DNA of 64,000 nucleotides from Alphaproteobacteria bacterium (GCA_015654635.1 JAATGP010000007.1:17771-81770); one strand, 5' to 3'. Counted from the first letter of the stretch, positions 22,764 to 38,113 are shown. Translations and numbers: made by a program. The notes: generated by a model not told the origin, from the letters alone.

Positions 22764-23854
22764 GCCGCGCTTTTGCGCTTTTCGAACATCGCCCACACAC
22801 CGTCCTCGCCGTCCCAGCTTCCGCGGCTGGCGCCCTTGGAATACTCGGTGGCGCGTTGCTCGAAAAAGTTGGCGTGCTCCACGCCGTTGAGAATTTCGAC
22901 CAGCCAAGGCAAAGGATGCGCCTTCAATGGCCGATAGCCGCTGTCACTCTCTTCGAAGTTACCAAACACTGGCGGTAGCTTTAGTTGCGTCAACCGCCAG
23001 TCGGCGATGTAACGGACGTAAGCCTTGATATCGGCGGCACTCATGCCCTCGATGCCGCCGATCCCGAACGCCAGATCGACGAAGCCCTCTTCCAGTTTCA
23101 CCATCGTTTTGGCCACGTCGATGATGTCGTCGCGCACGGCCTTCGTCACGGCGCCGGTTTCGCGGTCCCATTGGTGAAAAAGCTTGATGACCCCTTCGCA
23201 ATGTAGGCTCTCGTCGCGCACCGACCAACTGACGATCTGGCCCATGCCATTCATCTTGTTGTGGCGCGGGAAATTGAGCAGCATCGCGAAACTAGCGAAC
23301 AACGCCATACCCTCGGTAAAAGCACCAAACATAGCGAGCGTGCGGGCGACGTCAGCGACGGTGTCCACGCCGAACGAGTGCATGTAATCCGCCTTGGCGC
23401 GCAGCTCGGCATAATCACGAAACGCTTCGAACTCCGCCTTCGGCATGCCCAGTGTTTTTAGGAGCAGCGCATAGGCGTCGATGTGCACCGTCTCCATGTT
23501 GGTGAAGGCGGCCATCATCATCTGCACTTCCAGCGGCTGGAACAGCGGGATGTAGCGCTTGAGGTAATTGTCGCCCACTTCCACGTCGCTCTGCGTGAAG
23601 AAGCGGAAAATTTGTGTCAGCAGCGCGCGTTCCGCAGGCGTAACGCGATCGGATGACCAGTCCTTGATGTCGTTGCCCAGCGGTACTTCCTCGCCCATCC
23701 AGTGCGTCTGCTGCTGGCGCTTCCAGAACTCATAGGCCCAAGGATAACGCTCAACGTCATAGGTACCGGTGGCGGTCAGCAATCCGACTTTGCCCGTGCC
23801 AATGAGGGTGCGCGGGTCCGTGTTGCCGGGAAGAATCACTGGCATGCCAAGCAC
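22760..23854 (-). CDS. nrdB: Class I ribonucleotide reductase small (beta) subunit
   Basis: Ferritin-like R2 with ETVHIDAY (E-x2-H-x3-Y spacing of the metal ligands and radical Tyr). GTG at 23854 or ATG at 23845. Overlaps or abuts the nrdA stop. Confidence 0.9.
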   Translation of the reverse strand: MLGMPVILPGNTDPRTLIGTGKVGLLTATGTYDVERYPWAYEFWKRQQQTHWMGEEVPLGNDIKDWSSDRVTPAERALLTQIFRFFTQSDVEVGDNYLKRYIPLFQPLEVQMMMAAFTNMETVHIDAYALLLKTLGMPKAEFEAFRDYAELRAKADYMHSFGVDTVADVARTLAMFGAFTEGMALFASFAMLLNFPRHNKMNGMGQIVSWSVRDESLHCEGVIKLFHQWDRETGAVTKAVRDDIIDVAKTMVKLEEGFVDLAFGIGGIEGMSAADIKAYVRYIADWRLTQLKLPPVFGNFEESDSGYRPLKAHPLPWLVEILNGVEHANFFEQRATEYSKGASRGSWDGEDGVWAMFEKRKSAA

Positions 23855-25770
23855 TCCTCGTAGTCGGTCGGCGCCTCGGCGCGCAGCGCGGCTTCTTTCT
23901 TCTCAAGCTGGCCGGCAAAGCCGGCGCGGCTCACCGATTTGGAGCGGCAGTAATAGAGGCTCTTGATACCGCGCTCCCACGCCGTCCAATGCAGCATGTG
24001 CAGATCCCATTTATCCACGTCACCGGGAATAAACAGATTGAGCGACTGGCTCTGGCAGATGAATGGCGCGCGGTCCGCCGCCAAATCGATGATCCAGCGC
24101 TGATCGATCTCGAAGGCGGTGCGATAGACAGCCTTCTCATCGTCCGTCAGGCAATCCAGATGCTGGACCGAACCTTCCTGCTCGACGATCGACTGCCAAG
24201 TCTCTGGCGTATCGACACCCTTCTCCGCCAACAGTTTCTGCAAATAGGGATTGCGCACGGCGAAGGAGCCGGACAGCGTCTTGTGATTGTAGATGTTGGC
24301 CGGGATCGGTTCGATGCAGGCGCTCGTGCCGCCGCAAATGATACTGATCGAGGCCGTCGGCGCGATCGCGATCTTATGGCTGAAGCGTGCCTTCATGCCG
24401 CGTTCGGCTGCGTCAGGGCAGGCGCCGCGCTCTTCCGCGAGCACATAAGACGCCGCGTCGGCTGCACGCCGAACATGCCGGAAGATGCGCAGGTTCCAGC
24501 TTTTCGCCAGCGCGCTTTCCATCGGAATGCCGCGCGATTGCAGGAAAGAGTGGAAGCCCATAACGCCTAAGCCAACGGAGCGTTCGCGCAGGGCGGAGTA
24601 TTTGGCCCGCGCCATGCTGTCCGGCGCGGTTTCGATGAAGCTGGTCAGCACATTGTCCAGCATCCGCATCACGTCTTCGATGAATTGCGGTTCCGCATTC
24701 CATTCGTCCCAAGTCTCGATGTTGAGAGAGGACAGGCAGCACACTGCGGTGCGTTGTTCGTCGCGGTGATCGACGCCGGTGGCAAGCGTGATCTCGCTGC
24801 ACAGATTCGAGGTGGAAACCTTGAGACCAAGGTCGCGCTGGTGCCGGGGCAGCGCGCGGTTCACATGGTCGATGAACAGCAGATAAGGTTCGCCGGTCTG
24901 CAACCGTGTCTCCAGGATGCGCTGCCAGAGCTGGCGGGCGCTTACCTCGCGGATGGTTTCGCCATTCTTTGGGCTCTTGAGCGCGAACATCGCGCCATCG
25001 CGCACGGCTTCCATAAAGGCGTCGGTGATGGCAATACCGTGATGCAGATTGAGCCCTTTGCGGTTGAAGTCGCCTGACGCCTTGCGGATTTCGAGGAACT
25101 CCTCGATTTCGGGATGATGCACGTCGAGATACACCGCCGCCGAACCGCGCCGCAGCGAGCCTTGGCTGATGGCAAGCGTCAGCCCGTCCATCACGTGGAT
25201 GAAGGGGATGATGCCGCTGGTCTCGCCGCATCCTTTCACCGCTTCGCCGATGGAGCGCACTTTGCCCCAATAGGTGCCGATGCCGCCGCCATTGGAGGCG
25301 AGCCAGACATTCTCGTTCCAGGTGTTCACGATGCCGTCGAGAGAATCCGACACGTCGTTGAGGAAGCAGGAGATGGGAAGGCCGCGCGTCGTGCCGCCAT
25401 TCGACAGGATCGGCGTCGCCGGCATGAACCAGAGTCGCGAGATGGCGTCGTAAAGGCGCTGCGCATGCGCAACGTCGTCGGCATAGGCGCAAGCGACGCG
25501 CGCGAACAAGTCCTGGAAGCTCTCGCCCGGCATGAGATAGCGATCTGTCAGAGTCGCTTTGCCAAACACGGTCAGAAGACTGTCGCGGCCACGATCCAAT
25601 TGGAGATCGGAGGGCTGTGGCCTGCGTCCAAGCGGACCGGGCATTGGTGCGGAACGCGGCTCGGCTTTGCGAAAAACAAGCCTCGGTCCCGGCATGGAGC
25701 GGCCGGGAGCGATCTCGGGCACAGGGACCAGATGACCATGAATGTCGAAGTCAAAAGCCGGGGACGACAT
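23836..25770 (-). CDS. nrdA: Class I ribonucleotide reductase large (alpha) subunit, no N-terminal ATP-cone evident
   Basis: PATPILSNGGT, NLCSEI, and a C-terminal redox tail EECLACQ. The chosen start is MSSPAFDF at 25770, preceded by AAGGAGA. The longer ORF to 25863 ends only about 20 nt short of the riboswitch. Confidence 0.9.
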   Translation of the reverse strand: MSSPAFDFDIHGHLVPVPEIAPGRSMPGPRLVFRKAEPRSAPMPGPLGRRPQPSDLQLDRGRDSLLTVFGKATLTDRYLMPGESFQDLFARVACAYADDVAHAQRLYDAISRLWFMPATPILSNGGTTRGLPISCFLNDVSDSLDGIVNTWNENVWLASNGGGIGTYWGKVRSIGEAVKGCGETSGIIPFIHVMDGLTLAISQGSLRRGSAAVYLDVHHPEIEEFLEIRKASGDFNRKGLNLHHGIAITDAFMEAVRDGAMFALKSPKNGETIREVSARQLWQRILETRLQTGEPYLLFIDHVNRALPRHQRDLGLKVSTSNLCSEITLATGVDHRDEQRTAVCCLSSLNIETWDEWNAEPQFIEDVMRMLDNVLTSFIETAPDSMARAKYSALRERSVGLGVMGFHSFLQSRGIPMESALAKSWNLRIFRHVRRAADAASYVLAEERGACPDAAERGMKARFSHKIAIAPTASISIICGGTSACIEPIPANIYNHKTLSGSFAVRNPYLQKLLAEKGVDTPETWQSIVEQEGSVQHLDCLTDDEKAVYRTAFEIDQRWIIDLAADRAPFICQSQSLNLFIPGDVDKWDLHMLHWTAWERGIKSLYYCRSKSVSRAGFAGQLEKKEAALRAEAPTDYEECLACQ

Positions 25771-25884
25771 CGCTTTGCTCTCCTTGATCTGGCGGAGAGA
25801 CAGCGGACGCATCGCAGGAAAAATGGCACGGAGCCACGGACCAGCAAGCGGCCACCGGGACACCCCGCCCGACGCACGTTCAAT

Positions 25885-26075
25885 CCGTTCCCGGCAGGTC
25901 TCCTGGCTCGCGGCTTTGTCGCTTCTGCCGGCCTTCCCGATGCATCCGCATCAGTGGCGTTTATGGCAGCGGCTTGCCGCTTACAGTTGCGGGGGCAGCG
26001 CCGGAATTGACCTGCTTTCAGGCCGTACCGGCTTCCCTCTTAGCCCCAGATGTCGCCATCCGGGGAACCGTGAAC
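25885..26075 (-). promoter_or_regulatory. Cobalamin (B12) riboswitch in the nrdAB leader
   Basis: The minus strand reads ...GGTTCCCCGG..GGGGCTAAGAGGGAAGCCGGT..GCTGCCCCCGCAACTGTAAGCGG..GCCACTG..GGGAAGGCC..GAGCCAGGAGACCTGCC (B12 box). It is collinear with the metE-leader element at 37805-38000. Confidence 0.8.
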
Positions 26076-26204
26076 CGCTATAGCTTGTGGTCAGGGTCGG
26101 GCCCAAGTCAAGCGGTTCTATGTTGCTGGTGTCGGATTCTCATGTGCGCAGCCAAGCATGAACCAACGGCACTATCTGATCGGCCCGGCAGCCATCAACC
26201 CACG

Positions 26205-26429
26205 TCACGGTTTTTGCGTTTCGCGGACGACGGGCACCATTTGATCGCCCCACGCGCCCGAGCCGTCGTGGCATCGTGAGACGCGCACCAGCTCGACGGA
26301 AATGCCACCATGAACCGCCTGCTCGATGGCGGCATTGAGACGGTGGGCGGCTTCTGCGATCCGGCGGACGGCGCGACCGGAGTCATCTTTGCTGGGCATC
26401 GGTGCCGGTTTGAATTCTGACTCGTCCAT
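26205..26429 (-). CDS. Small conserved hypothetical protein B (74 aa), paralog of 28143..28436
   Basis: Start MDESEF at 26429 with a GAGGAGG RBS. C-terminus LNAAIEQAVHGGISVELVRVSRCHDGSGAWGDQMVPVVRETQ aligns at about 49% identity, without gaps, to the other copy. Confidence 0.6.
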   Translation of the reverse strand: MDESEFKPAPMPSKDDSGRAVRRIAEAAHRLNAAIEQAVHGGISVELVRVSRCHDGSGAWGDQMVPVVRETQKP

Positions 26430-26484
26430 TGGCCCCTCCTCGTGTCGGGCAAAGCGGGCGCGCCGATACACGCCGCTTCGCCAA

Positions 26485-28104
26485 TTATCCGGCGACGAAC
26501 TGGTTCATGGTGTTGGCGTGCCCGCCCGCCTTGAGCGCGCGCTCACCGCTGACCATCGTCTTGAAGGTGTCGCCGAGGTCGGACCCGACCTCGTGCTGAT
26601 GCTTCACAGCAGAGATGCCGCGACGGATTTCTTCGCGCTGGACCGAGACAACATAGGCTTTCATGCGATCTTCGCCGAAATAGCCGCGCGACAGCTCATC
26701 CACGCTCTTAGCCGTCAGGTGGAAGGTCGGAAGCGTGATCAGATTGTGGAATACGCCGGCTCTCGCCGCGATATCCGCCTGGAAGCGCTTCAGGCGATCG
26801 TCCGCTTCGCGACCCAGTTCGGTGTCGTCGAATTGCGCGGACATAAGCGCAATGTCGCCCGGATAGTCGGACGCTTTGATGCGATCTTCCTTGATCCACT
26901 GCTCGCGCACCTGCTTGCGCAGGTTGAGCGTCCAGTTGAAGGAGGGAGAATTGTTGTAGGCGAGCTTTGCCTTTGGTGCTGCCTTGCGGATTTCGGCCAC
27001 CATCGAGGCGATCTCATCGACATTGGGGGTGTCGGTTTCGATCCAGAGCAGGTCAGCACCACCATCGTTGAGGGACGCGATGCAGTCCTCGATGACGCGT
27101 CCGCGCCCGGTATTGTCCTTGAATGCGAACAGGCCATTCGGCATGCGCACGGGTCGCGCGAATTTGCCGTCCCGAACCAGGACCAACTCGCCATCGCGCA
27201 GCGGGATCTTGTCCGTGATCTCCTCGGTCTTGAGCCATTTGATATAGGACGCGGCGTGATCGTCCGGTGACGTACTGACCGGCACCTTCTGCGTCAGGCC
27301 CGCGCCCAGGCTATCGGTACGCGCGACGATGACCCCTTCTTCGACGCCAAGTTCTTCGAACGCGAGGCGGCAGGCACGCAGCTTCTCGATAAAATCTTCC
27401 CGCGGTACCGTGACCTTGCCGTCTTGATGACCGCATTGTTTGGCATCGGAGACCTGGTTCTCGATCTGGATACAGCAGGCGCCGGCCTTGATCAGCTCTT
27501 TGGCGAGCAGATAGGTCGCGTGCTCGTTGCCGAAACCGGCATCGATATCCGCGATGATCGGGACGACATGGGTTTCGAAGGTGTCGATCGCCTTGATGGC
27601 AGCGGCTTCCGCGATGTTATCGCCTTTCTCGCGCGCTTCGCGCAGGGCCTCAAACAAATCGTTCAAGGCCACTTCGTCGGCCTGCCGCAGCGACACATAT
27701 ATCTCTTCGATCAGATCGGCGACCGCCGTCTTCTCGTGCATCGACTGATCGGGCAGATGGCCCCAGGTGTTGCGAAGTCCAGCGACCATCCAGCCAGACA
27801 AGTAAACGTAAGCGCCCTTTGTCGTGCCGCGCATGCGCTTCACCGACTTGATCATCTGCTGCGCGTGGAATCCGGACCAGCATCCCAGCGATTGCGTGAA
27901 CTTGGAGGTATCCTTGTCATACGCGGCCATGTCGGCGCGCATCACCTTGGCCATCGCGCGCGCGATATCGAGATGCGTGTCGAAGGTATTCTGCAATTTG
28001 AGCTGTACGATGTCGTCAACACTGACGCCACCCGGTGCCACACCCGAAGGATAGCGCTTGAGAAGCTCGTTTGCGAGTTCGCGGTAGGTCTTGCGTGCAG
28101 CCAT
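26485..28104 (-). CDS. aceA: Isocitrate lyase (long, ~540-aa form)
   Basis: The ICL signature region KQCGHQDGK (KKCGH-type) and overall length. ATG at 28104 (MAARKTYRELA); an alternative GTG at 28146 would overlap the upstream small ORF stop (GTGA). Confidence 0.9.
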   Translation of the reverse strand: MAARKTYRELANELLKRYPSGVAPGGVSVDDIVQLKLQNTFDTHLDIARAMAKVMRADMAAYDKDTSKFTQSLGCWSGFHAQQMIKSVKRMRGTTKGAYVYLSGWMVAGLRNTWGHLPDQSMHEKTAVADLIEEIYVSLRQADEVALNDLFEALREAREKGDNIAEAAAIKAIDTFETHVVPIIADIDAGFGNEHATYLLAKELIKAGACCIQIENQVSDAKQCGHQDGKVTVPREDFIEKLRACRLAFEELGVEEGVIVARTDSLGAGLTQKVPVSTSPDDHAASYIKWLKTEEITDKIPLRDGELVLVRDGKFARPVRMPNGLFAFKDNTGRGRVIEDCIASLNDGGADLLWIETDTPNVDEIASMVAEIRKAAPKAKLAYNNSPSFNWTLNLRKQVREQWIKEDRIKASDYPGDIALMSAQFDDTELGREADDRLKRFQADIAARAGVFHNLITLPTFHLTAKSVDELSRGYFGEDRMKAYVVSVQREEIRRGISAVKHQHEVGSDLGDTFKTMVSGERALKAGGHANTMNQFVAG

Positions 28105-28142
28105 GACACTAATTTCCCTGAGTTCGTTGTTCGAATCCGATT

Positions 28143-28436
28143 TCACTTCTCGCGCTGGCGCGTCTGAACCAATGGCGCCATCTGGTCGCCCCAGCAGCCG
28201 TCGCCGGAATGAACGCGGTAGCGGCGGCGAAGCTCGATGATGACGCCTGCCTCCGTCGCCCGCGCTACCGACGCATTGAGTTGCTCGACGTCGCTCTCCA
28301 CGGAGCGCAGCGATGCGCGCAACTCCGGCGTGAGCGCCTGGCTCGCGCTGGTCAGATAGACATCGCTCTGCGCTTCAAGATCGGAGGGCATCGGACAACT
28401 GCCGGCGCCGGGAATGGCGAGAATGTCTTGGGACAT
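28143..28436 (-). CDS. Small conserved hypothetical protein A (97 aa), paralog of 26205..26429
   Basis: ATG at 28436 lies 1 nt after the aceB stop (TGAtATG). C-terminus LNASVARATEAGVIIELRRRYRVHSGDGCWGDQMAPLVQTRQ. Confidence 0.6.
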   Translation of the reverse strand: MSQDILAIPGAGSCPMPSDLEAQSDVYLTSASQALTPELRASLRSVESDVEQLNASVARATEAGVIIELRRRYRVHSGDGCWGDQMAPLVQTRQREK

Positions 28437-28437
28437 A

Positions 28438-30045
28438 TCAGGCTCCGGTGATTTCGAGTTCAAGAAGGCGGCGATAGGCCGATGTCGTGAGGAAGGGTTC
28501 GAGCGTCTCGGCAAGGCATTGCGACAAGAACAGCCCCCGTGCCTCGACAAGGCTGCGGGGTGCATCGCTATCCTTTGGGATCAGCCTGGAGATCTCCTGA
28601 TCGACAATCTTTGTCAGAAACTCATCCGTCAGCGTTTCGCCGGTATCGAACCGAACGCGATGCAGACGCCATTGCCAAACTTGCGCGCGCGATATTTCCG
28701 CGGTCGCTGCGTCTTCCATGAGATTGTAGAGCGGCACGCAGCCCATGCCGTCGAGCCATGCAGCGATATATTGGATTGCGACGCGGACATTTGCCCGCAA
28801 GCCTTCTTCGGTGATCGTCCCTTCGGGCTTGCGTGTAAGATTGGCCGCAGTGACATGCACGTCGTCGCGCTGGCGGGAGACCTGGTTGGCGCCGGGCATG
28901 AATTCGTCAAAGGCGGCGCGTGCGATCGGAATGAGGCCGGGATGGGCAACCCAGGTGCCATCGTGCCCGTTGCGCGCCTCGCGTTCCTTGTCAGCTTTGA
29001 CTTTCGCGAACGCCGCTTCGTTGGCTTCCGCGTCGTCGCGGATCGGAATTTGCGCCGCCATCCCGCCCATCGCATGCGCACCGCGGCGATGGCACGTCTT
29101 GATGAGAAGCTCGCTATAAGCGGCGAGCGCGGGCGATGTCATCGCGACTTGGCCGCGATCCGGCAGAATGAAATCCGCGCGGCGGCCGAGCGTCTTGATC
29201 ATAGAGAAGATGTAATCCCACCGCCCGCAGTTCAGGCCGACGATGTGATCGCGCATTTCGTAGAGGATTTCGTCCATCTCGAAAGCGGCAGGTAGCGTCT
29301 CGATCAAAACGGTGGCGCGGATCGATCCGCGCGGGATATCGAGCAGCTTCTCGGTATAGAGGAAGACATCATTCCAGAGCGTGGACTCGTGTCGGCTCTC
29401 CATTTTCGGCAGATAGAAGTACGGACCGCTCCCGCGCGCTAGAAGTTCGCGCGCGTTGTGGAAAACGTAGAGACCGAAGTCGAGAAGCGAGGCGGAAATC
29501 TCCTCGCCTGCGACCTCCAAATGAGCTTCGTTCATGTGCCAGCCGCGCGGACGCACCAGAAGAATCGCAGTCTGTGGATTGAGGGTGTAGTCACGCCCGG
29601 TCTTCTCGTCGCGATACGCAAGCGTGCGGCGCACCGCGGCCATCAGATTGGCTTGGCCGTCGATCAAGTTCGCCCATGTGGGCGATGAGGCGTCCTCGAA
29701 GTCCGCCATGAACGCCTGCGCGCCGGAGTTCAGCGCGTTGATAATCATCTTGGCGTTGACCGGACCCGTGATTTCGACGCGCCGGTCGAGCAGATCCTTT
29801 GGCGGCGGGGCGATGATCCAATCGGCGTCGCGCAGCTTTTGGGTATCGGCAGGAAAGCCGAGCGTCTCTTCGCCAGCATCGAGTCGGGCCTGCCGCTTGA
29901 CGCGCAGCGATAGCAAATCGCGCCGGAAAGCATCGAAGCGGCGATGAAGATTGGCGAGAAACGAAATGGCCTCCGGCGTCAGAACCGTAGTCTGCGCCGG
30001 ATGTTGCCCGGTGATCGTGATGCGATCGCGTGTGTTGCCTGCCAT
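28438..30045 (-). CDS. aceB: Malate synthase A
   Basis: A ~535-aa A-type malate synthase (..YFYLPKMESRHE..RATVLIETL..NCGRWDYIFS..). The start is taken as MAGNTRDRITI (30045); the ORF is open to 30102. Confidence 0.9.
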   Translation of the reverse strand: MAGNTRDRITITGQHPAQTTVLTPEAISFLANLHRRFDAFRRDLLSLRVKRQARLDAGEETLGFPADTQKLRDADWIIAPPPKDLLDRRVEITGPVNAKMIINALNSGAQAFMADFEDASSPTWANLIDGQANLMAAVRRTLAYRDEKTGRDYTLNPQTAILLVRPRGWHMNEAHLEVAGEEISASLLDFGLYVFHNARELLARGSGPYFYLPKMESRHESTLWNDVFLYTEKLLDIPRGSIRATVLIETLPAAFEMDEILYEMRDHIVGLNCGRWDYIFSMIKTLGRRADFILPDRGQVAMTSPALAAYSELLIKTCHRRGAHAMGGMAAQIPIRDDAEANEAAFAKVKADKEREARNGHDGTWVAHPGLIPIARAAFDEFMPGANQVSRQRDDVHVTAANLTRKPEGTITEEGLRANVRVAIQYIAAWLDGMGCVPLYNLMEDAATAEISRAQVWQWRLHRVRFDTGETLTDEFLTKIVDQEISRLIPKDSDAPRSLVEARGLFLSQCLAETLEPFLTTSAYRRLLELEITGA

Positions 30046-30128
30046 TTTCTGCCGTCCAATGATCTCGTTGACAGTCTTTACAAGAGGGATGCGCGGCATC
30101 AATGATGCGTCCGCACTAAAAGTGTCGA

Positions 30129-30180
30129 TTTGTAAAGGCTTTCACAGCCAAGGCGGCACTTCTGTAAAGGTTGTAAACAG
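30129..30180. promoter_or_regulatory. Candidate ScfR/RamB operator repeats (TTTGTAAA; cTGTAAAggTTGTAAAc) in the aceB / regulator divergent region
   Basis: TTTGTAAA at 30129-36. TGTAAA at 30163-68 and 30172-77 (9-nt spacing) abuts the GTG start at 30181. These resemble the TTTGCAAA-type sites reported for ScfR/RamB regulators. Confidence 0.3.
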
Positions 30181-31599
30181 GTGGCGGAACGAAAGGTTTT
30201 TGCGGGCCAGCGCGTCAGGCATCTGAGAACCGCGCTGGGTTTGAACCAGGCGGCGATGGCGCGCGACCTGGGAATCTCGGCGAGCTATCTCAATCTTGTC
30301 GAACGCAACCAGCGCCCGCTGACCACGCAGCTCATCCTCAAGCTGGCCGAAACTTACGACCTCGATCTGCGCGAATTGCGCGGCGACCGCGAAACCCGCC
30401 GCATCGCCGAACTCACGGAAATCCTGGTCGATCCGGTGTTTGGCAAGATGCCGCCATCATCGGCTATTGCCGATGTGGTCAACGGTTATCCCGACATCGC
30501 GGCGGCGCTCGCTTCCGTCTATGGCGCATATCGCAAAGCACACGCATCCGGCGTACCGGACTTTGCTGCCAGCGACGACCGGCAGCCCGTGCCGCCCGAC
30601 GAGCGCTTTCCAGTCGAGGAGGTGCGCGACTATTTCCACGCACGCAACAACTACATCGCCTCGCTCGATGAACAGGCCGAGGCGCTTCATGGCGAGCTTG
30701 CAGAGAAGGATGATCTGTTCGCGGCGTTGCGCGATTATCTGCGCGAGCAGCATCAGATTCGTGTGACCATCCTTCCCATCCATGCGATGCCCGACGCGCA
30801 ACGCCGCTTCGACCGGCATAACCGCCGCCTGTTCTTGTCTGAAATGCTCCCGGTGCCCAGCCGCATCTTCCAGACCGCGGTGCAGGTCGCATTGCTTTCC
30901 TATGGCGCGGAGATCGACCGGCTTGTCAGTGCAGCCAGTCTTAGCGGTGAAGACGCCAATCGCCTGTTCCGCATCGGACTCGCCAATCATTTCGCCGGTG
31001 CGCTGATGATGCCGTATGAACGCTTTCTGGAAGCAGCAATCGCCACACGCTACGACATCGACGTGCTTGCCAGCCGCTTCGGCGCCAGCGTCGAGCAGGT
31101 GGCGCACCGGCTGACAACCCTGCAACGCACGGAACGGCGCGGCGTGCCGTTCTTTCTGCTGAGGCTGGACAATGCCGGCAACATTTCTAAACGTTTCTCC
31201 GCCGGTGGCTTTGCCTTCGCACGGTTCGGCGGGACGTGCCCGCGCTGGCGCGTTCACGATGCCTTCGGCACGCCGGGCGAGACGATCGTGCAGCTCGTCG
31301 AACTGCCGGACGGCACGCGTTATCTGACAGTTTCGCGCACCGTCGAAACCATGCGCGGGCGTTATCCACTGAATGCCCGCAAGCTCGCGATCAGCCTCGG
31401 CTGCGAAATCTCCTATGCGTCGCAACTCGTCTATGCAGAGGGACTTGATCTTGCCGGCGCGGAAGCCGCCACGCCTATCGGCGTGACTTGTCGCGTCTGC
31501 GAACGCACCAACTGCGCGGCGCGCGCCTTTCCGCCGATGACGCGGCCACTGACGATCGATGCGTCGCGCAAGGGATTCTCGGCGTTCGAATTCGGTTAA
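30181..31599 (+). CDS. ScfR-family (RamB-like) short-chain acyl-CoA-responsive regulator: XRE HTH + ImmA/IrrE-like + DUF2083 Cys-rich domain
   Basis: MAERKVFAGQRVRHLR..LGLNQAAMARDLGISASYLNLVERNQRPL, NHFAGALMMPY, and C-terminal Cys residues (GGTCPRW..GCEI..CRVCERTNC). Divergent from aceB. Confidence 0.8.
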   Translation: MAERKVFAGQRVRHLRTALGLNQAAMARDLGISASYLNLVERNQRPLTTQLILKLAETYDLDLRELRGDRETRRIAELTEILVDPVFGKMPPSSAIADVVNGYPDIAAALASVYGAYRKAHASGVPDFAASDDRQPVPPDERFPVEEVRDYFHARNNYIASLDEQAEALHGELAEKDDLFAALRDYLREQHQIRVTILPIHAMPDAQRRFDRHNRRLFLSEMLPVPSRIFQTAVQVALLSYGAEIDRLVSAASLSGEDANRLFRIGLANHFAGALMMPYERFLEAAIATRYDIDVLASRFGASVEQVAHRLTTLQRTERRGVPFFLLRLDNAGNISKRFSAGGFAFARFGGTCPRWRVHDAFGTPGETIVQLVELPDGTRYLTVSRTVETMRGRYPLNARKLAISLGCEISYASQLVYAEGLDLAGAEAATPIGVTCRVCERTNCAARAFPPMTRPLTIDASRKGFSAFEFG

Positions 31600-32105
31600 G
31601 GCTGCGCCGTTTGGCCATTCTCATCGTTTGCGCGCCAAGATGCGATCAATGCAGGGTCCGACAACAGTTTGGCGATGCCGTCCGGTGCATAGGTGCGGAT
31701 GTTGATGGTCTGCCCGCGGCGAAAGCTGATACTGCCTTTGACCGGCAGGCGTCCGTCCTTGGTCCAGCGCAGCCGCTCGCGCGCGGTAATGCCCAGCACA
31801 TTCTGGACGAGGCGAGGCGTCAGCGGGCGGTTGGCAATGATCTTCAACGCCGCGTCGATTTCCGCGACAATCCCGCGAACCGTGTGGATGTCGTCGCGCC
31901 GGAAAATCCAAACATCCGGCGCTTTCGCATAAGCGCCGATATCCAGCCGGCGCAGATATGTGGCGATGCGCTTTTTGACTTCCGCTTCGCGCAGGCGCAG
32001 GCCGAGAAAGCGATTCAAGCCCTTCTGCGGAGAGAGATGGATTTCGTCCTGACCGACAGTGACATGAAGAAATCCGCTCCGCACGATCTCTCCGGCATGC
32101 GTCAT
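31596..32105 (-). CDS. Hypothetical protein with possible C-terminal excisionase/MerR-like HTH
   Basis: 169-aa ORF. The segment LVQNVLGITARERLRWTKDGRLP resembles HTH_17-type motifs. Its 3' end overlaps the convergent regulator gene by 4 nt. Confidence 0.45.
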   Translation of the reverse strand: MTHAGEIVRSGFLHVTVGQDEIHLSPQKGLNRFLGLRLREAEVKKRIATYLRRLDIGAYAKAPDVWIFRRDDIHTVRGIVAEIDAALKIIANRPLTPRLVQNVLGITARERLRWTKDGRLPVKGSISFRRGQTINIRTYAPDGIAKLLSDPALIASWRANDENGQTAQP

Positions 32106-32130: not shown

Positions 32131-33549
32131 TCAACTCACCGGATAGGGTGCGAACCGGCTTCGGTTTTCATCCACCGCGACGCGCTTGCCGATGGGCGGA
32201 AAAGCGCGCTGCGAACAGTTCGGGCGCTCGCAAACCCGACAGCCGGCGCCGATGGGCGTTGCGGACTGAAGATCGGTTAGATCGAGCCCCTTCGCATATA
32301 CCAGTCTCGGTGCATGGCGTATATCGCAGCCCAAACCGATCGCGAAGGTCTTGCCCGGCGCGCCATAACCATCGCCGCCACGCGAGACCGTGCGCGCGAT
32401 CCAGAGATAAGTGCGCCCGTCCGGCATCTGGGCGATCTGCGTCAGAATCTGGCCTGGCTGCGCAAAGGCAGCATAAACATTCCACAACGGACAGGCGCCA
32501 CCAACGCGCGAGAAGTGGAAGTCCGTCGCCGATTGGCGTTTCGAGATATTGCCGGCGCGGTCCACCCGGATGAAGAAGAACGGCACGCCACGCGCTTCGG
32601 GACGCTGCAAGGTCGAAAGCCGGTGACAGACCGTTTCGAATCCCACACCGAACTGCCGACCTAGACGCTCGATATCGTAGCGGAGCGTCTCAGCCGCCTG
32701 ATGGAAAAGCCCGTAAGGCAGGATAAGCCCGCCCGCAAAATAATTCGCCAAACCGATCCGTCCCAGCGCACGGGCCTCGTCGCTGGAGAAGGCTGCGTCC
32801 TGTGTCAAACGGTCGAGCGCCGTTCCCACCTCCAGGAAAGCCAGTTGCGTTGCCATCTGGAAGGCCTGCTGGCCCGGACGCAGTTCGGCGGAGAGATAGA
32901 GAACCTTGCTCGCGGGATCGAAGCGCCGCTGTGTTCCGCTCACCGTATCTTCGATGCGCTCGATCACGACGCGCACACCGTGCCGGCGGGACAGCCAATC
33001 CGTAAAACCGGCATGGACGCCACCGGGCGACAACTCCGCTTTGCGATAGAGCCGCTCCGCGGCCTCATCGAGTTCGGCGATGTAATTGTGGCGCGAATAG
33101 AAGAAGTCGCGCACCTCTTCATAGGGCATGGGCTGCGGCGCTTCGGTTTCCCAATCGTCGCCGAGGCGCGCCGCCATTGCTTCGGTTCGTTGCACGCTCT
33201 CGCGATAGCGCCGGTGCAGCGTGATCAGGGCGCGGCCGATGGCGGGCATGTTGGCGGCTAACTCGCGGATTTCGGCAGTCGTCACGCGCTCGATAGTCTG
33301 GGTATCCGACAGCGTGTCACGCAAATCGGCGATCAGGCGCGCTTCCTCGTCTTCGGAGAAAAGCTGTACGTCGATGCCGAGCGCTGCGTTGATCTTCAAG
33401 AGCACCGGCACCGTCAGCGGACGCTGGTTTTTCTCAAGCTGGCTCAGATAGCTCGTGGAAAGCTCCAGCGCATCGGCAAGCGCTGCCTGGGTCAGGCCGC
33501 GTTCCTCGCGCAGCCGCCGCAACCGGACTCCCATGAACGCCTTGCGCAT
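32131..33549 (-). CDS. ScfR-family (PrpR/MccR-like) regulator of the methylcitrate operon
   Basis: Same architecture as 30181..31599 (MRKAFMGVRLRRLREERGLTQAALADALELSTSYLSQLEKNQRPL ... GGACPLW ... CRVCERPNC). The start is placed at 33549 by analogy to the paralog; the ORF is open to 33594. Confidence 0.8.
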   Translation of the reverse strand: MRKAFMGVRLRRLREERGLTQAALADALELSTSYLSQLEKNQRPLTVPVLLKINAALGIDVQLFSEDEEARLIADLRDTLSDTQTIERVTTAEIRELAANMPAIGRALITLHRRYRESVQRTEAMAARLGDDWETEAPQPMPYEEVRDFFYSRHNYIAELDEAAERLYRKAELSPGGVHAGFTDWLSRRHGVRVVIERIEDTVSGTQRRFDPASKVLYLSAELRPGQQAFQMATQLAFLEVGTALDRLTQDAAFSSDEARALGRIGLANYFAGGLILPYGLFHQAAETLRYDIERLGRQFGVGFETVCHRLSTLQRPEARGVPFFFIRVDRAGNISKRQSATDFHFSRVGGACPLWNVYAAFAQPGQILTQIAQMPDGRTYLWIARTVSRGGDGYGAPGKTFAIGLGCDIRHAPRLVYAKGLDLTDLQSATPIGAGCRVCERPNCSQRAFPPIGKRVAVDENRSRFAPYPVS

Positions 33550-33561
33550 CACCATATTCAC

Positions 33562-33648
33562 AAACTTTGCAACTTCGGTCATTTCGCTCCACAAAACTAC
33601 GCTAATTCAGTGGTTTCGTGATGCTGTAAGATTGCGGATATTGCGGAA
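33562..33648. promoter_or_regulatory. Candidate ScfR operators: AAACTTTGCAA (33562-72) and TTGCGGAtaTTGCGGA (33632-47)
   Basis: AAACTTTGCAA matches 11/13 of the RamB box A(A/G)AACTTTGCAAA as I recall it. The 9-nt-spaced direct repeat abuts the ATG of the first prp-operon gene. Confidence 0.35.
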
Positions 33649-34086
33649 ATGCAGCCCGCAGCGCAAGCCGTACCATCCGATCATCCCAGCGACCTGCCGG
33701 GCGAAGCGCGTCTTCTGGAAATGGTTTTTCCAGAACAGGCCAATCACTACGGCACGCTCTTTGGCGGGACCGCGCTCGCCCTGATGGGCAAGGCGGCGTT
33801 CATCGCCGCGAGCCGGCACGCACGCTGTGCTGTCGTCATGGCGGCATCCGACCGCATCGAATTCCATGTGCCGGTGAAGGTCGGCCAGATGATCGAGCTG
33901 CACGCATGGATCGAGCGGCGTGGACGCACCTCGATGACGGTCGCCGTCGATGTCGTCGCCGAAACGCCGGCGACCGGCGTGCGCCAACCTGCCATGCGTG
34001 GCCGCTTCGAGATGGTCGCCGTCGATGCGAACGGCCGTCCCACGCCGATCACTTCCCCATCGCACAATGAGAACGCCGACACATGA
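33649..34086 (+). CDS. Hotdog-fold acyl-CoA thioesterase (YciA-like)
   Basis: [30 protein letters not shown] ... [11 protein letters not shown] overlap with prpD. Confidence 0.8.
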
Positions 34087-35624
34087 AGCTTCATACCGTC
34101 CGTACCTACAAATCCGCCGAGATGCTCAAGCGCGAAGACCAGCTTGCCTGGAAGCTTGCCGCAGTCGCGAGCGACCCGGTGGCCGTCGAAGACGATGTCG
34201 TCGAGATGATCGGCAATCGCATCATCGACAATGCGGCGGTAGCCGCCGCGTCGGTCAATCGTCATCCGGTCGTTAGTGCGCGGGCGCAAGCCGTGACGCA
34301 TCCCTATACGCGCGGCGCAACGGTAGTCGGATTGCCCAGCACATCGCGGGTCTCGCCCGAATGGGCGGCCTGGGCGAATGGTGTCGCCGTGCGGGAGTTG
34401 GACTATCACGACACGTTCCTGGCCGCGGAATATTCGCATCCTGGCGACAATATCCCGCCGGTGCTGGCCGTGGCGCAGCATTGCGGTTTGTCAGGCGCCG
34501 ATCTCATCCGCGGCATCGCGGCTGGATATGAAATCCAGGTCGATCTCGTGAAGGGCATCTGCCTGCACGAGCACAAGATCGACCACATCGCCCATCTCGG
34601 CCCTTCGGCGGCTGCCGGAATCGGCGCGGCGCTCAATCTGCCAACCGAGACGGTCTATCAGGCAATTCAGCAGGCGCTGCACGTCACCACCACCACGCGC
34701 CAGTCGCGCAAGGGTGAGATTTCGAGCTGGAAAGCTTACGCGCCCGCTTTCGCGGGAAAGATGGCGGTGGAAGCGGTGGACCGCGCGCTCCGTGGCGAAG
34801 GCGCGCCGTCGCCGGCCTATGAGGGCGAGGACGGTTTTATCGCGTGGCTGCTGGGCGGCTCCAAGGTCGAATACCTCGTCCCGCTGCCGGAGCCGGGTGA
34901 GCCCAAACGCGCGATCCTCGATACTTATACGAAAGAACATTCCGCAGAATATCAAAGCCAGGCGTTGATCGATCTGGCGCGTAGGCTTGGTCCCAGGATC
35001 GGCGATCTTTCGCGCGTGAAGGACATCCTGATCCGCACCAGCCATCACACCCATTATGTGATCGGCACCGGCGCCAACGATCCGCAAAAGATGGACCCGA
35101 ACGCCAGCCGCGAAACGCTGGATCACTCCATCATGTACATCTTCGCGGTCGCGCTGGAAGACGGCGGCTGGCATCACGAGCGATCCTATGCACCGGAACG
35201 CGCGAAGCGGCCGGAAACCGTCGCGCTCTGGCACAATATCCGCACCGAGGAAGACCCGGCGTGGACGACGCGGTATCACGCGACCGATCCGAAGGTGAAA
35301 GCCTTCGGCGGCCATGTCGTCGTCACGCTGAAGGATGGGAGCGTTATTGAAGATGAGATCGCCGTCGCCGACGCCCATCCGCTCGGCGCCCATCCCTGGA
35401 AACGTCCCGATTATATCCGTAAGTTCCAGCTTCTCGCGGACGGCGTGGTCAGCGCAAGCGAACAGACGCGCTTCCTCGCCGCTGTCGAGAACCTCCCGCA
35501 ACTGAAGCCCGACGATCTTTTCCAACTGAGTTTCCGCGTCGAGCGGCTCGAACGGCCCGCGACGCACGGACTCTTCGACTGGCCCACCAAAGAGTGGCCG
35601 TCGCCACATGCATCCTTCGCCTGA
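34083..35624 (+). CDS. prpD: 2-methylcitrate dehydratase (MmgE/PrpD family)
   Basis: 513 aa with PrpD-family features (..[20 protein letters not shown]..), in context with prpC and prpB. Confidence 0.9.
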
Positions 35625-35634
35625 GGAGGCCCCC

Positions 35635-36804
35635 ATGTCCGAAGCACCCAAGCCGAAGAAGTCAGTGGCGTTATCCGGTGTGCTGGCGGGCAACACCGCG
35701 CTCTGCACCGTAGGGCGGACCGGCAACGATCTGCACTATCGCGGTTATGACATTCTCGATGTGGCCGAGGCCTGCGAGTTCGAGGAGATCGCGCACTTGC
35801 TTGTGCATGGCACGCTGCCGACCGAATCTCATCTCGCAAGCTACAAGGAAAAACTGCGTAGCCTGCGCGGGTTGCCCGCAGCCGTGAAGCAGACGCTGGA
35901 AGCGATCCCGGCGGCGGCCCATCCGATGGATGTGATGCGTTCCGGTGTTTCGGCGCTGGGTTGCGTGCTACCGGAAGCCGCCGACCACAATCTGCCCGGT
36001 GCCCGCGATATCGCCGACCGGCTGATGGCCTCGCTGGGTTCGATGCTCCTTTACTGGTTTCACTTCGCCCATCACGGACGGCGGATCGAGGTCGAGACGG
36101 ACGACGACAGCATCGGTGCGCATTTCCTGCATCTTTTGCATGGCGTAAAGCCGAGCGCTTCCCACATCCGCGCCATGCACACCTCGCTCATTCTCTACGC
36201 CGAGCATGAGTTCAATGCCTCAACCTTCACGGCGCGCGCCATCGCGGGCACCGGCGCGGATGTCTATTCGGCGGTGACCGGCGCGATCGGCGCCTTGCGC
36301 GGACCCAAGCATGGCGGAGCCAACGAAGCCGCGTTCGATATTCAGAAACGCTATGCCGATGCCGACGAGGCGGAAGCCGACATCCGCCGCCGCGTGGAGG
36401 CCAAGGAGGTCGTGATCGGCTTCGGCCATCCCGTCTATACGGTCGCCGATCCGCGCAACAAGGTCATCAAGGAGGTGGCCCGCGATCTCAGCGCCGAGGC
36501 AGATGCGATGAAGATGTTCGAAATCGCCGAACGGATCGAATCGGTTATGGCGGAAACCAAAAAGATGTTCGCCAACCTCGACTGGTTCAGCGCCGTCTCC
36601 TATCACATGATGGGCGTGCCCACGGCGATGTTCACGCCGCTGTTCGTCATCGCGCGAACGTCAGGCTGGTGCGCGCATGTCATCGAGCAGCGCATCGACA
36701 ACAAGATCATTCGCCCGTCCGCGAATTATACGGGGCCAGAGAATCTGGTCTTCGTGCCGCTCAAGGAGCGCGGTAAAACCGGCAAGCGGCAGAAAGCCGC
36801 CTGA
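35635..36804 (+). CDS. prpC: 2-methylcitrate synthase (citrate synthase family)
   Basis: Start [16 protein letters not shown] after a GAGGAGG RBS. Carries [25 protein letters not shown] and GFGHPVY signatures. Confidence 0.9.
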
Positions 36805-36815
36805 AGGACCAAGCC

Positions 36816-37751
36816 ATGCCCTATCTCGTCGCCGCCGATCTGCCCGTACAATCTGCCGCCCGCCGATTCCGCGAACTGCTCGCGCGCCCGAATATCCTGC
36901 GTCTGCCCGGTGCCCACAATGGTATGGCGGCGCTTCAGGCGCGGGCGGCAGGATTCGAGGCGCTCTATCTCTCCGGCGCAGCGATGACCGCTTCGATGGG
37001 ATTGCCTGACCTCGGCGTCATCACCGTAGACGAAGTGGCATTCTTCATCCGTCAAATCGCGCGCGCGAGCGGCCTGCCGCTTCTGGTCGATGGCGACACC
37101 GGATACGGCGAAGCGCTCAACGTCATGCACATGGTGCGCACCTTCGAAGACGCTGGCGCCGGTGCGGTTCATATCGAAGACCAGCTCCTGCCCAAGAAAT
37201 GCGGCCACCTCAACGACAAGAAACTCGCCGACGCGCATGACATGGCAGCCAAGGTGGCGGCGGCCGCGAAAGCGCGGCGCGATCTGCTCATCATCGCGCG
37301 CACCGATGCTGCGGCGAGTGAAGGCATCGACGGCGCTGTTGCGCGCGCAAAGCTCTACCTTGAAGCCGGTGCCGATGCGATTTTTCCAGAGGCGTTGACG
37401 ACCGCGGAGATGTTCCGCGCATTCGCGGAGTCGCTCCCCGGCGCGAAACTGCTCGCCAACATGACCGAGTTCGGCAGGACGCCGTTCTTCACGGCGAATG
37501 AATTCGAGAAGATGGGCTACAGCATGGTGATCTGGCCGGTCAGTTCGCTGCGCGTCGCCAACAAGGCGCAGGAGAAGCTTTATGCCGCCATCGCGCGCGA
37601 CGGCGGTACGCAGAACATGATCGATGCGATGCAGACGCGCACCGAACTCTACGCAACCATCGGTTATCACGACTACGAGGCGCTCGATGCCTCAATCGTC
37701 GAGACGGTGATCGCGGAAATCATGACCCAGCGCCGCCCCCAAAAGACATAA
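36816..37751 (+). CDS. prpB: Methylisocitrate lyase
   Basis: PEP-mutase/ICL superfamily: DGDTGYG..HIEDQ..PKKCGHLNDK. Confidence 0.9.
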   Translation: MPYLVAADLPVQSAARRFRELLARPNILRLPGAHNGMAALQARAAGFEALYLSGAAMTASMGLPDLGVITVDEVAFFIRQIARASGLPLLVDGDTGYGEALNVMHMVRTFEDAGAGAVHIEDQLLPKKCGHLNDKKLADAHDMAAKVAAAAKARRDLLIIARTDAAASEGIDGAVARAKLYLEAGADAIFPEALTTAEMFRAFAESLPGAKLLANMTEFGRTPFFTANEFEKMGYSMVIWPVSSLRVANKAQEKLYAAIARDGGTQNMIDAMQTRTELYATIGYHDYEALDASIVETVIAEIMTQRRPQKT

Positions 37752-37770: not shown

Positions 37771-37800
37771 TTGACAGAAGGAGTTGGCTTCGGCTTAATC
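37771..37800 (+). promoter_or_regulatory. Candidate sigma-70 promoter TTGACA-N18-TTAATC for the metE leader
   Basis: TTGACA at 37771-76 and TTAATC at 37795-800, immediately upstream of the riboswitch. Confidence 0.4.
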
Positions 37801-37804
37801 GGCC

Positions 37805-38000
37805 TATCGTGGTTCTCCCGGTCGCGTTGGCCGGGAGCTAAGAGGGAATCCGGTGCGCCGGGCTTTCGAAAGAAAGACGGCAATGCCGGAGCTGCCCCCG
37901 CAACTGTAAGCGGCGAGCCCGCTGTCGTTTCCGGTCACTGACGTTCGCGTCGGGAAGACCAGACAGCAGGCAATGACCCGTGAGCCAGGAGACCTGCCAC
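37805..38000 (+). promoter_or_regulatory. Cobalamin (B12) riboswitch in the metE leader
   Basis: GGTTCTCCCGG..CCGGGAGCTAAGAGGGAATCCGGTG..GCTGCCCCCGCAACTGTAAGCGG..GTCACTG..GGGAAGACC..GAGCCAGGAGACCTGCC. Downstream, GCCCTTGCCCTC can pair with the GAGGAAGGGC RBS at 38101-38110. Confidence 0.85.
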
Positions 38001-38113
38001 GATGAAAGAACGTCCACGGGCGGGGTGCTCCTGTTGGTCGCTTGCAGCAGACGGAGTCCGTCTGCGACACGCGCTCCACTTGGCCCTTGCCCTCATCAGT
38101 AGAGGAAGGGCTC

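Follow-up and report, generated by a model that had tools for sequence, protein, structure and literature searches.

Two small genes, orfA and orfB, accompany aceB (malate synthase) and aceA (isocitrate lyase, ICL) in a glyoxylate-shunt operon on the minus strand (positions 26205-30045) of a stretch of 64,000 nucleotides (nt) from an alphaproteobacterium (GCA_015654635.1, JAATGP010000007.1:17771-81770), hereafter the window. Both encode members of a family that NCBIfam already lists under the name SMc00767 family acetate metabolism repressor (NF050174). Our reading, to which we give a probability of about three in four, is that the two proteins are ICL-linked members of this family, that they would exert negative feedback on shunt expression through a RamB-type regulator, and that they came to share one operon when two ICL modules met. 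The family itself is known, since it is curated, named and the subject of one genetic study. Without being a new kind of system, the window contributes two divergent members to it, together with an operon that is unusual in having two copies and occurs in a small clade of Rhizomicrobium-like bacteria.

Operon organization

Gene mapping and hidden Markov model matches upheld the minus-strand order aceB, orfA, aceA, orfB given in the initial annotation. The first gene, aceB (28438-30045, minus strand; ATG at 30045, stop at 28440-28438), codes for a malate synthase A of 535 amino acids (aa), with a score of 768.2 bits against TIGR01344 (cut-off 594.5) and all three Pfam domains (MS_N, MS_TIM-barrel and MS_C). 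The product of aceA (26485-28104, minus strand; 539 aa) is a long-type ICL, matching NF005074/PRK06498 at 870.5 bits (cut-off 446) over profile positions 17-530 of 531. It is 93% identical to the ICL of a Rhizomicrobium metagenome-assembled genome (MAG; L001), and 82-87% identical to the long ICLs of an unclassified alphaproteobacterial MAG (L009), Caulobacteraceae and Bosea.

The small genes are closely spaced with their neighbours. The ATG of orfA (28143-28436, minus strand; 97 aa) lies 1 nt past the aceB TGA (TGAtATG), with a GGAG within the last aceB codons, and orfB (26205-26429, minus strand; 74 aa) begins 55 nt past the aceA TAA, behind its own GAGGAGG ribosome-binding site; both junctions were as initially described. 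The initial annotation also had the orfA stop touching or overlapping the start of aceA, which rested on a GTG at 28146. This GTG, which overlaps the orfA stop, is no more than the earliest start codon available in that reading frame. The true start is the ATG at 28104, since homologous ICLs and the NCBIfam alignment begin there (MAARKTYRELA; MSAARKTYRDL in L001), and the spacer between the orfA stop and this ATG measures 38 nt.

A GC-rich hairpin (GGGCGCG…CGCGCCC) was observed in the aceA-orfB spacer, both in the window (26430-26484, minus strand) and in the Rhizomicrobium MAG L001 (7949-8000); a GC-rich hairpin is also mentioned 3' of aceA-CCNA_01842 in Caulobacter (PMC4551563). The spacer hairpin was rejected as a stable element, since its folding energy does not stand out against shuffled sequence (z=-0.84). 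A search for intrinsic terminators within or after the operon gave none.

The small genes are conserved and related

Direct comparison of orfA and orfB (BLASTP) gave 39% identity over 54 aa, ungapped, with an E value of 4e-15. The earlier figure of about 49% over some 41 C-terminal residues was reproduced by a hand count over the segments aligned at the time (20/42, about 48%), and the shared tail, H-x-G-x-G-x-W-[GA]-D-Q-M-x-P, is present in both proteins. In an alignment of 33 relatives, 12 positions were invariant (N, A, E, R, R, H, G, G, W, D, Q and P) and the N-terminal parts varied freely. Orthologues of orfB were recovered at 90-59% identity, and 23 homologues of orfA at 100-47%.

GC-rich sequence such as this yields many spurious open reading frames (ORFs), which would favour chance ORFs or a duplicated non-coding spacer as the source of the two genes. 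Yet this explanation is already refuted and has next to no probability left. Both genes are under purifying selection: the ratio of non-synonymous to synonymous substitution rates (dN/dS, Nei-Gojobori) came to 0.10 when orfB was compared with its counterpart in the Rhizomicrobium MAG L001, and to 0.185 when orfA was compared with that on a metagenome contig (L044). The invariant motif is kept in frame across hundreds of homologues, and both structure models are confident (see below). The two copies agree at 0.57, 0.57 and 0.39 of first, second and third codon positions, respectively, the third being the most diverged; this pattern points to an old paralogy at the protein level, as a recently copied spacer would look different. 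The GC contents at third codon positions of the two small ORFs (0.79 and 0.69) bracket those of the flanking enzyme genes (0.72 and 0.76). Selection, in-frame motif and codon pattern thus bear out the initial view that orfA and orfB are protein-coding genes and not chance ORFs.

The disordered N-terminal tails of the two proteins, divergent in other respects, have a P-M-P-S motif in common (CPMPSD, orfA residues 15-20, 28377-28394; APMPSK, orfB residues 9-14, 26388-26405). Relatives show weaker "MP" versions of this possible short linear binding motif.

Membership of the SMc00767 family

The family had initially been left unrecognised. NCBIfam, however, already names it: NF050174 matched orfA with E=2.5e-15 (profile positions 7-66 of 66) and orfB with E=2.2e-22 (positions 12-66 of 66). 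Pfam has no family for either protein. The scores, 56.4 bits for orfA and 79 for orfB, lie below the equivalog cut-off of 95 bits. Both proteins were filed as divergent members of the family rather than as equivalents of SMc00767, because homology is secure and the scores stay under that cut-off.

A profile derived from the window proteins together with their relatives recovered 166 clusters at 50% identity from 1.84 billion representative proteins, and a wider profile search gave 1666 clusters at 90% identity. In a reciprocal test, 108 of 108 representative homologues matched NF050174. Many clusters in NCBI and UniRef bear the name "SMc00767 family acetate metabolism repressor", among them entries from Agrobacterium, Rhizobium, Neorhizobium, Mesorhizobium, Sinorhizobium and Aquamicrobium. 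Compared with a member from Sinorhizobium sp. BG8 (P0255), orfB showed 51% identity over 53 aa (E=4e-19) and orfA 45% over 64 aa (E=8e-20), so that neither window copy is as close to its partner as it is to the rhizobial protein. Both contain the family core motif, N-x5-A-x7-E-x2-R-x2-R-x-H-x-G-x-G-x-W-[GA]-D-x3-P, which was invariant in two alignments that included the window and rhizobial proteins (A2 and A4). Across the 108 representatives, N, G and R were invariant and A, V, E, R, H, G, W, G and D at least 90% conserved. Most members measure about 60-130 aa.

Two proteins met in these searches stand apart. One of 94 aa, from a JGI contig of 909 bp (P0035), displayed the hairpin motif in two tandem copies (…ELLRTSRYHSDDGCWGDQLTP… and …ELMRTSRFHSEAGSWGDQMTP…); its source name, "phage gp46-like protein", is probably a misannotation. 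The other, P0076 (1938 aa), was matched in six stretches by the profile search and was discarded as a spurious match, being a repetitive adhesin-like protein.

The founding member SMc00767 is a 240-bp ORF downstream of aceA in Sinorhizobium meliloti, studied in 2007 by Ramirez-Trujillo et al. (J Bacteriol 189:5875). In that work, SMc00767 mutants were reportedly impaired on acetate, and the protein is said to repress aceA expression; the NCBIfam name agrees with these findings. A literature text search for "acetate metabolism repressor" returned nothing. The initial annotation had offered accessory subunits, regulators or assembly factors as possible roles. The family name, like the study just cited, favours a regulator over an enzyme subunit or an assembly factor.

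Predicted structure

AlphaFold2 (AF2) models of both proteins were obtained. That of orfB (predicted local distance difference test, pLDDT, 85) consists of a helix (residues 14-40) packed on a beta-hairpin (43-54/60-70), and that of orfA (pLDDT 80) of a helix (37-62) and a hairpin (65-76/82-92). The two proteins are thus predicted to share the same small fold, one helix plus a beta-hairpin. In orfA, the N-terminal 30 residues are disordered and carry a G-x-C-P-M-P motif. The invariant H-G-G-W-D residues occupy the end of the first strand, the hairpin turn and the start of the second strand.

Foldseek searches against PDB gave no match at E<=0.001 (best E=1.3), and a sequence profile search of PDB nothing below E=0.01. 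A MADS-box-like fold was considered on account of MEF2A-DNA complexes (1egw and 6byy) and rejected; the match (E=4.8, template modelling score 0.38) was not significant and reflects a loose likeness of topology. No recognisable DNA-binding domain was found in the small proteins with Pfam, PDB sequence search or Foldseek. They are neutral to acidic, with isoelectric points (pI) of 5.0 and 6.3 (family median 6.4), and the net charge of the conserved core is on average close to zero.

Synteny in relatives

The positions of aceA, aceB, ramB and the small gene were mapped in 36 genome loci encoding the motif and in several metagenome contigs. All 36 loci were alphaproteobacterial (Rhizomicrobium, Caulobacteraceae, Bosea, Methylobacterium, Hyphomicrobium, Rhodospirillaceae and Novispirillum). 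The small gene lay directly 3' of aceA in every one of them (36/36), as well as in those metagenome contigs that were long enough for a verdict, and this held for short (about 430 aa) and long (about 540 aa) ICLs alike. Nearly every locus with sufficient flanking sequence had a RamB/ScfR-type regulator gene immediately upstream. In Sinorhizobium, for instance, ramB is divergent from aceA (429 aa), which is followed by the small gene (79 aa). Such strict synteny links both small genes to the glyoxylate shunt, as proposed earlier. The canonical position, 3' of aceA with ramB adjacent, is that of orfB; orfA instead stands after aceB and before aceA.

According to the initial annotation there was one paralog per enzyme gene, orfA acting for malate synthase and orfB for isocitrate lyase as enzyme-specific accessory subunits or assembly factors. 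The 1-nt junction between aceB and orfA and the place of orfB after aceA are in line with such a pairing, but the wider survey is not. Among the loci with enough sequence to judge, no family member followed aceB outside the window's own small clade, and the relatives of orfA (P0015, P0019, P0020, P0022 and loci L036-L043), at no more than 73% identity, follow an aceA of the short type. In the closest genome aceB is present and orfA is absent, a large number of members accompany aceA where aceB is not in the vicinity, and the GGAG in the last aceB codons precedes whatever gene follows aceB in relatives. One paralog per enzyme is unsupported because both copies have an ICL-linked history. On this comparison of gene order, the enzyme-specific model appears largely refuted, and we consider it very improbable.

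Origin of the two copies

A neighbour-joining tree of the small proteins displayed two deep clades. The clade of orfA was made up only of Rhizomicrobium-like operons with ramB divergent from aceB-aceA(short)-small, whose RamB and AceB proteins were 46-80% and 66-74% identical, respectively, to those of the window. The nearest relative of orfA outside its own small group (P0015 on contig L044, 73% identity) is likewise located behind a short ICL. Conversely, orfB grouped with copies linked to long ICLs from the Rhizomicrobium MAG L001, an unclassified alphaproteobacterium, Caulobacteraceae and Bosea. L001 is the closest genome (RamB 88%, AceB 82%, ICL 93% and orfB 86% identical) and has the order aceB-aceA(long)-orfB, without orfA. 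The window's order aceB-orfA-aceA recurred in at least two metagenomic relatives, P0012 (83%) and P0014 (79%; its contig ends inside the gene after orfA).

Most likely, the two copies reflect an exchange of ICL genes, not one helper per enzyme. Two ICL-linked modules would have been joined in one operon through this exchange: orfA would derive from the lineage's own aceB-aceA(short)-small operon and orfB would have come in with the long-type aceA, the short aceA having since gone from the operon. The sequences at the junctions fit both a loss of orfA in L001 and a gain or re-insertion of orfA in the window's lineage. The L001 junction, TGAcATGTCC joined to GCCGCACGC, had been taken for an orfA start fused to aceA, i.e. 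a trace of orfA loss; this argument was withdrawn because long ICLs of other lineages also begin with ATGTC[C/T] (Met-Ser).

The regulator gene and its control region

Divergent from the operon is a gene (30181-31599, plus strand) for a RamB-like regulator of the ScfR family, with the Pfam architecture HTH_3 + Peptidase_M78 + ScfRs. It scored 443 bits against the RamB model NF038139, whose cut-off is 700 bits; its label "RamB" is therefore taken from gene position, and its membership of the ScfR family is secure.

The 135-bp control region between ramB and aceB (30046-30180) contains three putative boxes and a conserved 16-nt element. The boxes are copies of TGTAAAGNNTNT, TGTAAAG(A/G)(C/T)T(G/T)T, at 30071-30082 (minus strand), 30131-30142 and 30163-30174 (both plus strand), the latter two being 32 bp apart. 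Matches with at most two mismatches numbered four in the window, against 1.2 expected by chance, and three of the four fell inside the 135-bp region. Class 2 RamB activates on acetate and represses on succinate, and the sites described for it comprise two boxes with an 18-bp spacer (PMC10370305); compared by spacing, the 32-bp arrangement of the window fits such two-box sites.

The 16-nt element, TTGTAAAGACTGTCAA, lies upstream of the aceB start and was conserved in 12 fetched loci. It is almost invariant across aceB-type operons (L001, L005, L007, L037-L040, L042 and L043) whose proteins are only 70-80% identical, and is a candidate operator or 5' untranslated region element.

Possible modes of action

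Negative feedback on operon expression is the most likely role of the small proteins, judging from the family name and the 2007 genetic study. The small gene would be made from the same transcript as ICL and its product would feed back negatively on expression of the shunt genes, thereby making induction on acetate or other C2 compounds self-limiting. The small, non-basic protein might do so by acting on the RamB-type regulator, as an anti-activator or a co-repressor at the ramB-aceB promoter. We think that such action on RamB is more likely than direct binding to DNA or to ICL, for three reasons: the regulator is the one neighbour common to both ICL types, the two types being only about 29% identical; the motif of orfA has been maintained in operons whose short aceA neighbour is gone; and the proteins are not basic and lack a DNA-binding signature.

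Direct binding to ICL, with post-translational inhibition or tuning, would match orfB to the long enzyme and orfA to a short ICL encoded elsewhere. The constant position of the gene directly 3' of aceA, where it is often translationally close, would suit this mode of action, as would the non-basic character of the proteins. Yet closely related small proteins follow short and long ICLs, and the copies of Methylobacterium and Hyphomicrobium belong to the long-ICL-linked clade and are nevertheless found behind short ICLs. Moreover, orfA is conserved in operons without a short aceA; since the small gene has outlived the neighbouring ICL gene, its partner is argued to be something other than that ICL. 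The family name, together with gene-fusion data reportedly obtained in S. meliloti, points to transcription, and we hold ICL binding to be unlikely. A similarly low probability is given to stand-alone dimeric repressors that would contact the ramB-aceB boxes through the helix and an Arg-rich beta-hairpin. The family bears the name of a repressor, the first beta-strand has conserved arginines (ELRRRxRVH for proteins of the orfA type), aceB is preceded by the three repeated boxes and the conserved 16-nt element, and MEF2A-DNA complexes figured among the weak Foldseek matches. However, all Foldseek E values were above 1, neither Pfam nor the PDB sequence search yielded a DNA-binding domain, a core charge near zero with a pI of 5.0-6.4 is unusual for a small repressor, and the boxes could just as well be sites for RamB.

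Several points weigh against feedback through RamB by two members of one family. The synteny with ramB is inseparable from that with aceA, the three genes being always together, and the small-protein tree partly tracks ICL type, which would fit direct ICL binding as well. A short-type ICL elsewhere in the genome may be the real partner of orfA. That orfA and orfB share the function of SMc00767 is assumed, their scores being below 95 bits, and there is a single functional study, that of 2007 in S. meliloti.

A broader proposal, possible though somewhat doubtful, is that the SMc00767 family is a general, overlooked third component of shunt control in alphaproteobacteria, with a new helix-plus-hairpin fold that would bind RamB/ScfR or ICL to close a feedback loop. 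The two paralogs of the window might then be specialised and act together after an ICL swap, e.g. as a heterodimer or on different targets.

For annotation, orfA and orfB deserve the label of the SMc00767 family, rather than that of hypothetical protein or accessory subunit. The trio of ramB, aceA and the small gene is a widespread, conserved unit, recorded in Rhizobiales sensu lato (Sinorhizobium, Bosea, Methylobacterium and Hyphomicrobium), Caulobacteraceae, Rhodospirillaceae and Rhizomicrobium-like bacteria. The two-copy operon provides a natural case that is useful for choosing experiments.

Neighbouring features

Directly after orfB lies a cobalamin riboswitch (RF00174, 134 bits; 25876-26087, minus strand), and no terminator-like site was found between the two. 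Behind this riboswitch is a gene for the alpha subunit of a class I-type ribonucleotide reductase (23836-25863, minus strand; NF006577, 1014 bits). A second cobalamin riboswitch (128 bits; 37793-38015, plus strand) stands in front of metE, encoding cobalamin-independent methionine synthase (38042-40438, plus strand).

On the other side of the operon, a second ScfR-family regulator gene (32131-33594, minus strand; product 44% identical to the RamB-like protein) is transcribed divergently from a group of genes at 34083-37751 (plus strand) comprising prpD, a citrate-synthase-family gene (prpC-like) and a gene of the phosphoenolpyruvate-mutase/ICL family (prpB-like). In view of this divergent arrangement, a methylcitrate-cycle cluster with its own regulator adjoins the glyoxylate-shunt operon. 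The second ScfR gene was also considered as a partner that had arrived with the long ICL; it was rejected, being divergent from prpD-prpC-prpB and, by position, a methylcitrate-cycle regulator. The interval between the two ScfR genes holds an ORF of 169 aa (31596-32105, minus strand) that Pfam does not recognise. This ORF and the 3' end of the ramB-like gene, on the other strand, have 4 nt in common, and a gene was called there in an identical Logan contig (L004) as well.

Comparison with known systems

In the aceBAK operon of E. coli, a regulator gene, aceK, is also located downstream of aceA, a likeness by analogy only. AceK (578 aa) is a kinase/phosphatase whose target is isocitrate dehydrogenase, and IclR represses by classical DNA binding; the small proteins are homologous to neither of the two. 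To our knowledge, the mechanism of an SMc00767-family protein has never been worked out.

The closest counterpart is SMc00767 of S. meliloti. The homologous core (45-51% identity over 53-64 aa, as measured to the Sinorhizobium member), the size class, the core motif (N, E, R, R, H, G, G, W, D and P) and a divergent ramB-like neighbour are held in common, and orfB further shares the position 3' of aceA. The window differs by proteins scoring below the 95-bit cut-off and by two copies in one operon that includes aceB. Its orfA is placed after aceB and has a disordered N-terminal extension of 30 residues with a Cys motif; its orfB accompanies a long-type ICL (539 aa) instead of one of the 429-aa type.

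The regulator of the window shares the HTH_3 + M78 + ScfRs architecture with the RamB/ScfR regulators of Paracoccus denitrificans and Corynebacterium. In Paracoccus, the RamB gene is divergent from the shunt operon, which RamB both activates and represses (PMC10370305); the window gene is likewise head-to-head with its operon, and two similar boxes are found there 32 bp apart. RamB is the counterpart of the main regulator, not of the small protein, and a small third gene goes unmentioned in the study of the Paracoccus mechanism (PMC10370305).

In Caulobacter crescentus NA1000, aceA shares a transcript with the hypothetical ORF next downstream, CCNA_01842, and not with aceB (PMC4551563). This small ORF directly follows a long-type aceA and is likened to orfB by position; the Caulobacter locus differs in that it has a single copy and a downstream aceB that is transcribed separately. 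The same aceA-small-aceB layout was found in a Caulobacteraceae MAG (locus L010), where the small protein is 74% identical to orfB.

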